DNA from: a virus
Taxonomy: Duplodnaviria; Heunggongvirae; Uroviricota; Caudoviricetes
DNA: 37,841 nt
Virus record (IMG/VR): IMGVR_UViG_2850808358_000012
Span: 1-37,841 of that record
Reading direction: 5' to 3' (one strand)
In this document: positions 960 to 37,841 of the stretch, in pieces
Position numbering within the stretch: position 1 is the first letter of the stretch
Layout of the letters: each line of letters opens with the position of its first letter
The notes under the pieces: generated by a model
What the model was told of the DNA's origin: nothing
The model's input: the letters and a program-made list of their open reading frames with translations, nothing else
The model's database searches: none
Program-made: the position numbers and the translations under genes

Positions 960-1011
960 GTGTTATCCCTCGTTTATGTCAGCGCGGCTGGTCCTTAAAG
1001 CGCGGAAAATT

Positions 1012-1079
1012 ATTCAAGATAGATATGGAAATCATTCAAGATAAGCCAGAAGCGCGCATATGGAAGTTATTCAAGATAA
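1012..1079. repeat. Three closely spaced ATTCAAGATA(A) repeats at the com/mom end; putative transposase-binding sites (R1-R3-like)
   Basis: Copies at 1012-1021, 1034-1044 and 1068-1079, in inverse orientation to three copies at the other end. Confidence 0.6.
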
Positions 1080-1080
1080 A

Positions 1081-1106
1081 ACAGCGGCATTAACCGCTGT
1101 TTTTTT
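1081..1106. terminator. Putative intrinsic terminator downstream of mom
   Basis: Hairpin AACAGCGG-catta-CCGCTGTT followed by T7 on the plus strand and flanked by A/T on both sides; 16 bp from the mom stop. Confidence 0.5.
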
Positions 1107-1121
1107 ATTCATTAAATGGGA

Positions 1122-1847
1122 TCATTTCGGATATGGCTGAATCCTGAATAGCTTAGTATTTAGCCGCTTCTTTGCTCGCTTGTTCAGGAACCTGATGTAG
1201 CGATACTGATTAAATTTATGCACCACGGCACGCTCTTTATTAGCCCGTAAATACACGCCTCGTTGTCCACCGCGCTTAATCGCGTTCATCGTTATCTCGT
1301 GATACCACTCGCCATCCAGCTCGTAGAACGTGCTTTCATGGCCGCCAATAAAATCAAAATTTGACGCCTGATACACAACGCCAGCACGTCCGCAGCGTTC
1401 GTCTGCAAAGGACTGTACCCATTCCACTGATGGATACAGTAATCTGATGGTTTTCAGCGCATAACTGATGGCCCGTGATTCAGAGTTGCGGGGCATGTCG
1501 TCGTGTAGCCACATGCGGTTCAGCTCCATATAACCCCGGTTATCCGTTTCAAGCACGACACGACGACCTGAGTTGGGGTTAAGGGCATATCCCCACTGGA
1601 GAACGCCAACCAGCTCACGTCCGCTGAATACTCCCAGGTGAAGGTAAGAGTTATTCACAAAACGGCGGGAGTAATGTTTTGTCTGAATGATTGTGCGGGC
1701 CAGCCAGCAGGATATGGTTTCAACGCGCAGCTCCTTTGAACCATAGCCAACAATCTGGCCTTCATACTCAATAACGCACGGTTTCGTCAGAATGCGTGAT
1801 TTCTTCTCTTTTCCCACAATGTTTCTCCGTGGGATGCTCGCAGGCAT
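1122..1847 (-). CDS. mom: DNA modification protein Mom
   Basis: 241-aa ORF immediately downstream of and overlapping com, the last gene before the phage end, as in Mu. Confidence 0.8.
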
Positions 1848-1956
1848 TCAGCATTATGATGTGACGTTTGCAACGCGGACACCTGATTTCAATGTGATCA
1901 AAGGAACCCGCCTTAAATAACAGTTTGTTGCAGTTCTTACAGCGAATTGATTTCAT
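1768..1956 (-). CDS. com: Com, zinc-finger translational activator of mom
   Basis: 62-aa product [16 protein letters not shown]...[17 protein letters not shown]... matches the Mu Com sequence as I recall it; CxxC...CxxC zinc finger. Confidence 0.9.
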
Positions 1957-2080
1957 CTCACCTCCTTTGCATCAATTCGCCACTATCTTAAAAAACATCA
2001 TGGGGTGAGTGTGGTTATCAGGACATAATCGATCTGTATTACCGATCGATTCAATTGATTCGATCGTCGTTTTCTATATT
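1957..2080 (-). promoter_or_regulatory. mom operon regulatory region (Pmom-like) with three GATC Dam sites
   Basis: GATC at 2031-2034, 2044-2047 and 2062-2065, 75-110 bp upstream of com. The minus-strand sequence ...gataaccacactcaccccatgatgttttttaagatagtggcgaattgatgcaaaggaggtgagATG resembles the Mu mom promoter as I recall it. Confidence 0.65.
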
Positions 2081-2521
2081 GCATTGATTAGCGGTGTTTA
2101 TGATGCAGATATCAAAGGCGCAACAGCATTAATACTCCACTTCAATATGAATACGGGGAGTTGCCCTGCTGTACAGTTCCGTGTGAATTATAAGAACGGC
2201 GGTATTTTTTATCGTTCAGCGCGTGATGGTTATGGATTTGAGGCTGGCTGGTCAGAGTTTTACACCACAACACGCAAGCCATCAGCGGGAGATGTTGGCG
2301 CATATACGCAGGCAGAATGTAACTCAAGGTTTATTACAGGTATTCGCCTTGGTGGTCTGTCATCTGTTCGGACATGGAATGGTCCCGGCTGGTCTGACAG
2401 GTCAGGTTATGTTGTTACCGGTTCCGTTAACTCAAACAGAGATGAACTAATTGATACAACTCAGGCAAGGCCAATTCAGTATTGCATTAATGGGACGTGG
2501 TATAACGCGGGGAGTATTTAA
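2009..2521 (+). pseudogene. 5'-truncated remnant of an alternative tail-fibre variable segment (S'v-like)
   Basis: C-terminal ~120 aa (...RPIQYCINGTWYNAGSI) parallels the C-terminus of the S tail fibre (...RPIQKYINGTWYNVAQV). The frame is closed at 2006-2008, no gix site lies upstream, and the ORF 5' part overlaps the mom regulatory region. Confidence 0.6.
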
Positions 2522-36137: not shown

Positions 36138-36138
36138 A

Positions 36139-36390
36139 TCACGACACCTTCCTGATAAATCCATCGTTACGATACCGGCTGGGCCAGATGATTTCTGGCG
36201 GTACACCTATAGCGTCAGAAATTACGCGTTCGTATTTTTTGTTTGGTGTGCGAACTACCGCTTTCAGTGAATCCTGAGCATAACCAGCATGGAGTGAAAG
36301 CTCCCGGAAGGAAGACCACCCGTTATCTTTGAGCGCCAGCTGAATCTTCAGCGAAGGCCAATCGCGGTCACTATCTTCTCTTTGTCTCAT
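36139..36390 (-). CDS. ner: Ner-like DNA-binding regulator
   Basis: 83 aa; ...DAIGVPPEIIWPSRY motif typical of the Ner/Nlp family; first gene of the early operon. Confidence 0.8.
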   Translation of the reverse strand: MRQREDSDRDWPSLKIQLALKDNGWSSFRELSLHAGYAQDSLKAVVRTPNKKYERVISDAIGVPPEIIWPSRYRNDGFIRKVS

Positions 36391-36554
36391 CTTTCCTTTA
36401 ACCTACAAAATTACCCGCGCGGATATCCGGTCGGATATCCGTATGGATAAAGATTAAGATGCCAAAGATTCCTTGTAAAGGCTTCTTTGGTGTTTTTGTG
36501 GTTTATTTTTTAATTTCATTATTTATCAATGAATTAGATAGAAAGGAACCAAGA
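36391..36554. promoter_or_regulatory. Divergent early-promoter/operator region between ner and repressor
   Basis: Two palindromic GGATATCCG copies (36421-36429 and 36433-36441), 12 bp apart, plus a GGATA half-site. Confidence 0.5.
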
Positions 36555-37118
36555 ATGAGAAAAGCACCCCAAGGTTCTTTTCCTGCCGATGGAAAAGAAC
36601 CGATTATCGAAAGAATCTTTAGGTTAGTAGAACGATACCCTTCAAGAAATGCGGCTGCTCGGGCATGGGGGATCAATGAAGGCACTTTAAAAAATTATTA
36701 CAACAGGCGGGATTACGCACCGATACCACGCCCGCATCAGTTAAAAAAGATAGCAGAAAGCGAAAATGTTACCTTGGAATGGCTCATGACGGGAGAGGGT
36801 GATGTTGAACTAAAAGATTCCAAAGAACCCAAAAAAGAGAATGCGGATAATGTTGATGCTCAAATTCTAATGTTCTTGTCATTTCTTAAACCACAAGAAA
36901 AACAACAAGTAGCTGATGTTCTTGGGAGAAAAGGAGCGGAGCAATTACTCATTCTTCTGGATGAGCACATCCAAGAGTTGCACGCTCTAGTTGGAGTTCG
37001 TAGAGCCATAGCGTTAAGCCTTGGTAATTTGCCAGACGAAAAGGTTAGAGAGATTTACGCGTTGTCCGAAGCTAAGGGCGATCACTTAAATCTACCTCAG
37101 AAAGCAGCCAGCGCATAA
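36555..37118 (+). CDS. Repressor, CI-type helix-turn-helix (not Mu c-type)
   Basis: Start at the ATG with AAGGAA 6 nt upstream (six-frame ORF begins at 36459). HTH region ...AAARAWGINEGTLKNYYN...TLEWLMTGEG; transcribed divergently from ner toward the phage end. Confidence 0.65.
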   Translation: MRKAPQGSFPADGKEPIIERIFRLVERYPSRNAAARAWGINEGTLKNYYNRRDYAPIPRPHQLKKIAESENVTLEWLMTGEGDVELKDSKEPKKENADNVDAQILMFLSFLKPQEKQQVADVLGRKGAEQLLILLDEHIQELHALVGVRRAIALSLGNLPDEKVREIYALSEAKGDHLNLPQKAASA

Positions 37119-37242
37119 CCCAGTGCAAGTGCCTAGCTGTGCTAAAATTACATTGGTTTTGGCGCTTGCACCCATCAGCGCTATAATAAACACCTGAATC
37201 GTTTTTGAACGGTCTTTAAAGGCTATTGTAAGAACCTGTGAG

Positions 37243-37376
37243 TTATCTTGAATGTTTTATTGATATCGAACCGTTTAACATTTTTGGACTCGCTTTATCT
37301 TGAAAACCTTGAGTTCCTAACTTGTTGATTCCAATCTATTCCCGTCTTTTTTAATCTCTTCCCGGTTATCTTGAAT
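37243..37376. repeat. Three spaced TTATCTTGAA repeats at the repressor end; putative transposase-binding sites (L1-L3-like)
   Basis: Copies at 37243-37252, 37295-37304 and 37366-37375, the last contained in the terminal inverted repeat. Confidence 0.6.
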
Positions 37377-37379
37377 AAA

Positions 37380-37841
37380 TTACCTAGTCATATCCTTTTG
37401 GATGTCATTCTCCGGTGGCAACGGGGTGAAGCTCTTTATCACCTCCAGCAGCATCGTCTTTTGACTGTTCTTCAGGGATAAGGAGGTGCTGAAAGTGAAG
37501 GTCAGCAGCGTATCTCCACGCCGCTGGAATACGGCTATCTGGCTAATCCGCCCCTGATTCCCCTCATCTTCCGGACCGTTCCAGGAATAATCCAGCAGCC
37601 AGGCCGGGGCCTCTGCCAGAGTGATTTCCCGGCAGGCATGTTCGGTGTACCCATCAAGTTTGCCCTGGTACAGCGCCAGCGTTTCCTGGTACAGCTCTGG
37701 TGTCAGGGTTCCCTGTGGAACGGCTTCGCGGGTAATGACCAGGTTGATGCCACTGTTATCTGTGGACACCAGGACCTGCATTGACTGATCCTGCCATTGA
37801 GACGGCAGTTGAATGTGGCCTTCATTAAAAGTGAACTGCAT
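37380..37841 (-). CDS. Host DUF1795/DcrB-family protein, EagR-like T6SS effector chaperone
   Basis: 153 aa; N-terminal pattern F.EG.I.LP..WQDQS...SG.NLVITRE resembles DUF1795 proteins as I recall them; stop codon overlaps the 5-bp target duplication. Confidence 0.5.
   Translation of the reverse strand: MQFTFNEGHIQLPSQWQDQSMQVLVSTDNSGINLVITREAVPQGTLTPELYQETLALYQGKLDGYTEHACREITLAEAPAWLLDYSWNGPEDEGNQGRISQIAVFQRRGDTLLTFTFSTSLSLKNSQKTMLLEVIKSFTPLPPENDIQKDMTR

Follow-up and report, generated by a model that had tools for sequence, protein, structure and literature searches.

A Mu-family prophage very probably inserted inside the 3' end of an eag chaperone gene in a type VI secretion island of Escherichia coli

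The stretch of DNA analysed here, called the window throughout, is the whole 37,841 nucleotides (nt) of IMG/VR virus record IMGVR_UViG_2850808358_000012. It holds a Mu-family prophage flanked by two genes of a type VI secretion system (T6SS) island, the chaperone gene eag and the effector gene rhs. The window is the exact reverse complement, base for base, of part of GenBank CP026877.1 (assembly GCA_002950035.1), and both of its flanks are 99-100% identical to more than 2,100 complete Escherichia coli chromosomes. In the phage-free relative M8, the gene order is cusRS, vgrG, a DcrB-related gene (eag) and rhs, the three T6SS genes sharing one strand. The locus is an orphan vgrG-eag-rhs T6SS island beside cusS and the cus operon on an E. 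coli-type chromosome. No T6SS core genes (baseplate, sheath or membrane complex) adjoin the island in the stretches of M8 and CP026877.1 that were inspected, and in CP026877.1 fragments of vgrG lie directly upstream of eag. The features that frame the insertion are as follows.

1-959, minus strand: 5' part of the rhs effector gene (prePAAR, transmembrane domain, PAAR), running off the start of the window; assigned by Pfam from the repaired translation
755-807, minus strand: out-of-frame stretch of rhs between two homopolymer indels, recognised by comparison with M8
960-978, minus strand: native eag-rhs spacer of 19 nt with a GAGGGA Shine-Dalgarno sequence, identical to positions 6960-6978 of the M8 locus stretch, between the DcrB-related and Rhs coding sequences
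979-995, minus strand: orphaned 3' end of the original eag open reading frame (ORF) on the rhs side of the phage (D-Q-P-R codons, TGA at 979-981), colinear with positions 6979-6995 of the M8 locus stretch
992-995, no strand: left copy of the target duplication TCCT, a single copy in the M8 empty site
996-37392, minus strand for most genes (the same direction as vgrG-eag-rhs): probable hybrid Mu-family transposable prophage of 36,397 bp, delimited by Pfam, PHROG, alignment with Mu and conserved termini
37393-37396, no strand: right copy of TCCT, from comparison with the M8 empty site
37380-37841, minus strand: eag, a chimeric gene for a DUF1795/DcrB-related chaperone of 153 amino acids (aa); Pfam DcrB PF08786, 1.4e-27

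Both flanking proteins belong to the families proposed for them in a first-pass annotation of the window. Eag, taken there as a DUF1795 protein, matches the Pfam DcrB/DUF1795 profile PF08786 over residues 7-137 with 96.8 bits (cut-off 27.2), and it matches the EagT6/PA0094 structure chains 6xrf and 1tu1 at an E value of about 1e-5. The protein of the other flank had been called a PAAR protein, and the repaired N terminus of rhs, which starts at 959 on the minus strand, does match Pfam PAAR_motif (1e-20), as well as prePAAR_I (28.8 bits, cut-off 25), the Rhs/Tre23 chain 7pq5 (7e-25) and RhsA. The transmembrane domain is also present as a hydrophobic stretch ahead of PAAR, FLGALAGAVLGAIV...ALVLVPALMY (judged by eye, without a transmembrane predictor). 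Beyond the window, in CP026877.1, ORFs with RHS_repeat and YD-shell domains follow the 5' part of rhs. The effector is predicted from its sequence to be a class I prePAAR Rhs protein. The annotation was also right that the pair is adjacent in phage-free relatives, as in the vgrG-eag-rhs operon of M8, and that the insertion parts the two genes by some 36 kb (36.4 kb).

The prophage very probably occupies 996-37392, with TCCT as its target duplication and its insertion point inside the 3' end of eag. The empty site, GGTCCTTTTGG, contains TCCT once and was read directly in M8 and confirmed by coordinates in GE3. In M8 it reads ...GCGCGGCTGGTCCT followed immediately by TTTGGATGTC..., the break falling between GGTCCT and TTTGG, and in both M8 and GE3 the coordinates of the two flank matches abut in the chromosome. 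The left-flank matches, found in 2,142 genomes, end without exception at window position 996, and every right-flank match begins at 37393/4. The prophage termini are 5'-TAAAGCGCGG...CCTAGTCATA-3'.

Related insertions at other sites lead to the same borders, as a single model (termini 5'-TAAAGCGCG...CCTAGTCATA-3' and a 4-bp duplication) fits all of them. Repeats of 4 bp lie flush with the same termini in six of the six independent insertions for which both junctions were read. Besides TCCT in the window, the duplications are TTTC in FDAARGOS_943, TGAA in VL40, GAAT in STEC346 (in an alanine racemase gene), CTTA in RM9088 (in the nrfA-nrfB region) and CCTG in STEC388 (in fliH). The empty site of the VL40 insertion is also present in M8, at positions 9336-9362 of the M8 locus stretch, and two empty sites were verified in all. 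At four further sites, found by their identical Mom protein, the identical mom-side terminus ends exactly in ...CCGCGCTTTA and gives way to unrelated DNA. The termini are conserved at about ten independent sites.

The sequence AAATT, which occurs at 1007-1011 and 37377-37381, had been taken for the target duplication in the first-pass annotation. It belongs to the phage: it forms part of the terminal inverted repeats, where it follows the outermost 10-11 nt and precedes the first transposase-site repeat, and about ten other insertions have it too. It resembles a direct repeat because it contains the palindrome AATT within an imperfect inverted repeat (TAAAGCGCGGAAAATTATTCAAGATA against TATGACTAGGTAATTTATTCAAGATA) and so has almost the same reading at either end. 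Phage DNA also makes up the two segments that had been assigned to the host, 15 nt at 997-1011 and 16 nt at 37377-37392, both of them conserved at five other E. coli sites. The empty site reconstructed from AAATT, printed as GGTAAATTTCCGCGC (one base different from the GGTAATTTTCCGCGC of its own model), has no match in 5,426 complete E. coli genomes when searched in a 58-nt version. The reconstruction fails on the annotation's own terms because no such empty site occurs in relatives, while a different one is abundant among them. The phage does not sit exactly between the two genes, as had been supposed, but within the eag ORF, 10 nt upstream of the native stop, and the native spacer from the eag stop to the rhs start is 19 nt (960-978, by the annotated coding sequences of M8) and not 49 nt. 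In general, terminal inverted repeats with a palindromic core such as AATT can mimic a target duplication during annotation. Here, comparison with the empty site shifted the borders by 11-16 bp and moved the insertion from an intergenic position into a chaperone ORF.

Other placements close to the preferred borders were considered and rejected. Two 5-bp models, one starting at 997 with TCCTT duplicated and one ending at ...CAT, fit the window by chance, as a T follows TCCT in the target; both fail in the other five insertions. A CA-3' terminus was rejected as well, as the CA at 37389-37390 is without a TG partner at the other end and all of the insertions share the TA that follows it.

The target site falls on codons K149/D150 of eag, with 10 nt left to the native stop codon (TGA, 979-981), and the last 13 nt of the present gene (37380-37392, T ATG ACT AGG TAA) are the end of the phage. 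As a result, the Eag tail now reads ...KDMTR in place of the native ...KDQPR (the native tail being that of M8). The length of 153 aa is kept because the phage end supplies the M-T-R codons and TAA in frame, and this in-frame end arose by chance. The only changes are Q151M and P152T; both lie outside the Pfam match, and the DcrB domain is whole.

This exact chimeric protein is found in five independent assemblies (CP026877.1, QWSJ01000315 and three Logan assemblies of public read sets), and the same assemblies contain the eag::phage junction. The insertion is real and fixed in a lineage, because the chimeric Eag and the junction recur in independent assemblies.

The rhs side of the locus retains 36 nt of native sequence upstream of the rhs ATG, consisting of the eag tail and stop, the 19-nt spacer and its GAGGGA ribosome-binding site. 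The gene itself differs from its M8 orthologue, which reads ...GPPAARLGDEIQHKSFLGALAG..., by two indels: the C run at 755-758 has four Cs (five in M8) and the G run at 800-807 has eight Gs (seven in M8). The 45 nt between them are out of frame and correspond to the prePAAR motif, which is destroyed as read; translation of the deposited sequence stops after 59 codons at TGA 780-782, a stop that the first-pass annotation had missed. The prePAAR motif has been defined as AARxxDxxxH (PMC7773334). The M8 sequence AARLGDEIQH fits this definition, and repair of the two indels gives TARLGDEIQH in the window.

In the proposed sequence of events, a Mu-family phage would have inserted by DDE transposition into the 3' end of eag with a 4-bp stagger at TCCT. 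The rhs gene would then sit 36.4 kb from eag, vgrG and any promoter that may lie upstream of vgrG, and would lie behind a repressed prophage and a hairpin after mom. The VgrG spike and the chaperone would still be made, while Rhs would be poorly expressed or not expressed in lysogens. Polar silencing of rhs in lysogens, a classical Mu-type polar mutation, is the most likely consequence, and the uncoupling of eag-rhs co-transcription is a reasonable inference. A simple consensus scan found no sigma-70-like promoter in 700-2000 on either strand. The strong hairpin at 1078-1103 was flagged in the plus orientation only, and it may act as a terminator on the strand of mom and rhs. At the other end, the repressor gene points outward, antisense into eag. 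For the lineage that carries the insertion, the Rhs effector has probably been cut off from its operon while the chaperone and spike genes remain, which would remove one interbacterial weapon.

Several points weigh against this account. The polarity is inferred from the arrangement of the locus, and it is possible that an outward or internal promoter was overlooked by the simple consensus scan. The rhs-side junction was seen in CP026877.1 only, as look-ups of the exact Mom protein gave no other assembly for this site. As read, five essential phage genes are frameshifted, so the prophage is either dead or, more likely, affected by homopolymer errors of assembly. Finally, if the rhs indels in 755-807 are real, the insertion changed nothing functionally.

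This last possibility is the strongest of the alternatives, namely that rhs was already a pseudogene with real frameshifts at 755-758 and 800-807, that the prophage has decayed, and that the phage landed without consequence in a dead locus. The indels do stand in the deposited sequence, rhs is further fragmented downstream in CP026877.1, and the locus does decay elsewhere, since the M8 rhs is also annotated as frameshifted, at another place. The kind of damage speaks against decay. Compared with Mu, the split phage genes are those for the terminase large subunit (near 22814), gp30 (near 19901), protease I (near 18268), gp35 (near 16096) and the tape measure protein (near 10725), and each of the five breaks comes from the loss of one base in a G/C run of 4-5. 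G/C runs of at least 5 number 30 in the prophage and 42 in Mu. Over 3 kb, CP026877.1 differs from QWSJ01000315, of the same lineage, solely in the shortening of a C5 run to C4, which breaks vgrG apart; cusA and cusC are likewise in pieces in CP026877.1. The rhs allele with both indels occurs in 0 of the 2,117 complete E. coli genomes that carry the locus, and the whole pattern fits systematic homopolymer miscalls. The indels of rhs and of the phage are therefore likely to be homopolymer errors of assembly, and a locus already dead before the insertion is unlikely.

A second alternative is that this type of phage favours the vgrG-eag-rhs island, by preference or through selection, and did not hit it at random. 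VL40 (NZ_CM177011.1) carries an independent insertion (positions 3204-37823 of its locus stretch) in the same island, at codon 6-7 or so of vgrG, in the same orientation and with the duplication TGAA; that phage has the same ends and a different backbone. The other ten or so sites are scattered, however. Related insertions lie in an alanine racemase gene, the nrfA-nrfB region, fliH, a pseudogene for a MolR-family regulator and a P2-like prophage, and more adjoin gspD, fliL, dapB, a zinc alcohol dehydrogenase gene and an acetyltransferase gene. The rough chance that some pair among 8-15 events falls within 2.5 kb of each other in a 5-Mb genome is 0.03-0.1, and the calculation is post hoc. A preference for the island is doubtful at best.

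That the junction is an artefact, with a phage copy misplaced into the T6SS island during assembly, is very improbable. CP026877.1 is visibly error-prone and transposable phages can be present in several copies, but the eag::phage junction and the chimeric Eag recur in four other independent assemblies, and real transposition leaves just the mark seen here, a perfect duplication of 4 bp that the empty site has only once. The intergenic placement (phage at 1012-37376, a 5-bp AAATT duplication and a 49-nt spacer) is scarcely credible: AAATT is present at both positions and 5 bp is the classical Mu duplication length (restated in PMC8705779), yet a phage-free relative would have to read ...GCGCGGAAAATTACCTAG..., with the 26-nt AAAGCGCGGAAAATTACCTAGTCATA present without phage, no such site exists in the genomes searched, about ten other sites show the 15-16 nt outside AAATT to be conserved phage termini, the flank matches end at 996 and begin at 37393, the native spacer is 19 nt, and the M8 empty site refutes the model.

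The distribution of the phage beyond this locus was also recorded. Many unrelated sites (including one in GCA_000167915.2) have in common an identical Mom and an identical right end of 126 nt, which indicates that the hybrid phage has probably been transposing recently. In STEC388 (NZ_CP041425.1, positions 1939237 and 2852466), the halves of the phage-split fliH lie about 0.9 Mb apart with matching CCTG duplications, and the genome has five matches to a probe for the mom end of the phage. This suggests a large rearrangement between prophage copies in STEC388.

Within the prophage, the genes support the Mu-like identity that the first-pass annotation gave to the DNA between the two AAATT copies; Pfam recognises a MuA-type transposase, MuB, Mom, the Mu portal protein and the tail sheath. 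Pfam and PHROG identify the early and regulatory genes A, B, gam, mor and C, the lysis and head genes (lysozyme, small and large terminase subunits, portal, major head protein gpT) and the tail genes (sheath, fibre S, fibre assembly proteins U and U'), together with com and mom. The features annotated individually are the following.

996-1079, plus strand: mom-side end (attR-like) with three TTCAAGATA(A/G) repeats at 1013, 1035 and 1070, from the motif count; it holds the left AAATT
1078-1103, no strand: GC-rich hairpin flanked by A and T runs downstream of mom, a possible terminator, from the promoter and terminator scan
1122-1847, minus strand: mom; Pfam Mom, 3.6e-75
1768-1956, minus strand: com; Zn_ribbon_Com, 1.5e-9
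2009-5128, no strand: tail-fibre (G-segment-like) region, from profile matches
2009-2521, plus strand: truncated remnant of S', in the tail-fibre region
2524-3057, plus strand: U', in the tail-fibre region
3086-3613, minus strand: U, in the tail-fibre region
3617-5128, minus strand: S, in the tail-fibre region
33044-33997, minus strand: Mu-type B transposition ATPase; Phage-MuB_C, 2e-27, and AAA_22, within an 89%-identical block shared with Mu
34032-36137, minus strand: transposase A, 701 aa from ATG (a 724-aa ORF from an upstream GTG); Mu-transpos_C, 3e-18, HTH_Tnp_Mu_1, 5e-7, and a weak rve match
36139-36390, minus strand: ner-like regulator; Pfam HTH_35, 1e-13
36555-37118, plus strand: c-like repressor; PHROG 3037, transcriptional repressor, 1.3e-43
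37243-37392, minus strand: repressor-side end (attL-like) with three TTCAAGATAA repeats at 37243, 37295 and 37366, from the motif count; it holds the right AAATT

The motif TTCAAGATAA has six copies in the window, three near each end in inverted orientation and none elsewhere. Of 100 shuffles, 0 reach six. The copies are putative binding sites of the transposase.

Most of this prophage is closely related to Mu itself. With Mu (NC_000929) it shares 89-97% nucleotide identity over Mu 3229-36653 (about 33 kb), from the last 31 or so codons of A through mom. Mu, which with SfMu and D108 is the nearest known phage, has B, kil, gam, mor, C and the lysis, head, tail, com and mom genes in common with it, in the same order, and the size of 36.4 kb is close to the 36.7 kb of Mu. 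The architecture of the ends is also alike, with three transposase-site repeats per end that are close together at the mom end and spread at the repressor end (R1-R3 and L1-L3 of Mu). The differences lie at the two extremities. In place of Mu 1-3228, which holds attL, c, ner and almost the whole of A, the prophage has 3.27 kb of foreign DNA, and 74 nt of the same type stand where Mu has its final 64 nt (attR). The Mu c repressor has no significant similarity to the repressor in the window. Mu has TG...CA termini and a 5-bp duplication, whereas this prophage has TA...TA termini, with TA at 996-997 and 37391-37392, and a 4-bp duplication. The element is of the Mu family by gene content and mechanism and departs from Mu proper in duplication length and termini, as does a group of Mu-like phages of E. 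coli and Yersinia.

Smaller differences from Mu are found in the interior. Nothing in the prophage corresponds to Mu 34502-35613, which comprises the 3' end of S', the right G boundary and almost the whole of gin; the joint lies near 2086-2109. The G-segment inversion system is gone: gin is absent, S' is truncated and the orientation of S/U is fixed. In some relatives that share the Mom protein, S' is still longer than here (277 aa), and a gene with a Resolvase domain is present in one. Two segments are additional to Mu. At 30387-30992, a gene of about 182-200 aa follows gam (PHROG 2260, unknown function); at the corresponding place, FDAARGOS_943 carries a gene of equal size from the DUF5420 family. 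At 23673-24291, about 620 nt with a 67-aa ORF (PHROG 21398, unknown function) lie between the genes for the small and large terminase subunits.

The foreign extremities have close relatives in other phages. The transposase core is 27% identical to MuA, and the whole window transposase is 80.8% identical to that of Yersinia phage vB_YpM_5/6 and 74% to that of the LC727895 phage. The last 25 or so residues, ERDEYLNHSLDILEQ-RRKK, equal the MuA tail except for one residue and lie next to the Mu-type B gene. A recombination joint falls at window 34125-34145 or thereabouts, about 31 codons before the end of A. Window 34145-37393 is 98.7% identical in nucleotide sequence to the FDAARGOS_943 prophage, and up to 37392/3 the repressor-side end matches those of the FDAARGOS_943 and VL40 prophages with 100% identity. 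The FDAARGOS_943 prophage has the repressor-ner-A module and both ends in common with the window phage, but its backbone from B onward is only about 70-86% identical or unalignable, while the window phage has a genuine Mu backbone. From these alignments, the window phage appears to be a recombinant in which the DNA from the end of A through B, the late genes and mom comes from Mu, and the repressor, ner, most of A and both end arrays come from another Mu-like lineage.

A 4-bp duplication has a precedent among related phages. The feature table of LC727895 lists a 4-bp 'duplication due to insertion' for a related Mu-like phage, Mu_JNE122137, the ends of which are TG...TA and not TA...TA. The Mu-like phages of CC119 Shiga toxin-producing E. 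coli (the study behind LC727895) are inserted in Stx phages and have been described as similar to Sp18 of O157:H7 Sakai (PMC10132054). That paper mentions these phages without their duplication, and the paper on the Yersinia vB_YpM phages does not discuss the phage ends. According to a 2021 survey, TG-CA was conserved in every Mu-like and B3-like phage described by that time, and the TA-TA ends of Leptospira prophages, which have 6-bp duplications, were a novelty (PMC8705779). In the searchable literature, no discussion of MuA-type phages with a 4-bp duplication and TA ends was found, the sole explicit statement being the LC727895 feature table.

It is possible, as a tentative reading, that the repressor-ner-A module and its ends make up a biochemically uncharacterised MuA-family system that cleaves after TA (not CA), joins with a stagger of 4 bp (not 5 bp) and was grafted onto a Mu backbone, with only the last 25 or so residues of MuA kept. 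The C-terminal tail of MuA is the part that contacts MuB and ClpX. If the reading is correct, the hybrid would be a natural domain swap, with the specificity for ends and stagger residing in the N-terminal and core parts of A and in the end sequences, and compatibility with MuB and ClpX in the C-terminal tail of the transposase. The hybrid itself shows that transposase and matching ends travel together as a module from one Mu-like backbone to another, and the identical ends at about ten sites show that Mu relatives with TA ends and 4-bp duplications are actively hopping in E. coli.

At the level of the locus, the nearest known parallel is the classical polar Mu mutation, in which near-random insertion with a short target duplication cuts the distal genes from the operon promoter. 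The present insertion differs in that the gene hit is nearly unchanged, as the phage entered 10 nt from the stop and its end restores a stop codon in frame. The flanking genes have parallels in the Eag and class I prePAAR Rhs pairs SciW-Rhs1, EagR1-RhsA and EagR-Tre23 (PMC7773334, PMC8636562), which have the vgrG-eag-rhs order of the phage-free relatives, the same DcrB/DUF1795 chaperone and the succession of motif, hydrophobic segment and PAAR that the M8 orthologue of the effector shows. Chaperones of this kind bind the N-terminal transmembrane domain of the effector and stabilise it. The Eag-Rhs pair appears to be a standard class I prePAAR system, and it differs from the known pairs in being split by 36.4 kb, in the two changed residues of the Eag tail and in the prePAAR motif, which is frameshifted as read. 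Taken as a whole, the insertion is an ordinary one of the Mu type, its effect is likely to be polar, and it holds nothing unexpected for Mu-type phages.

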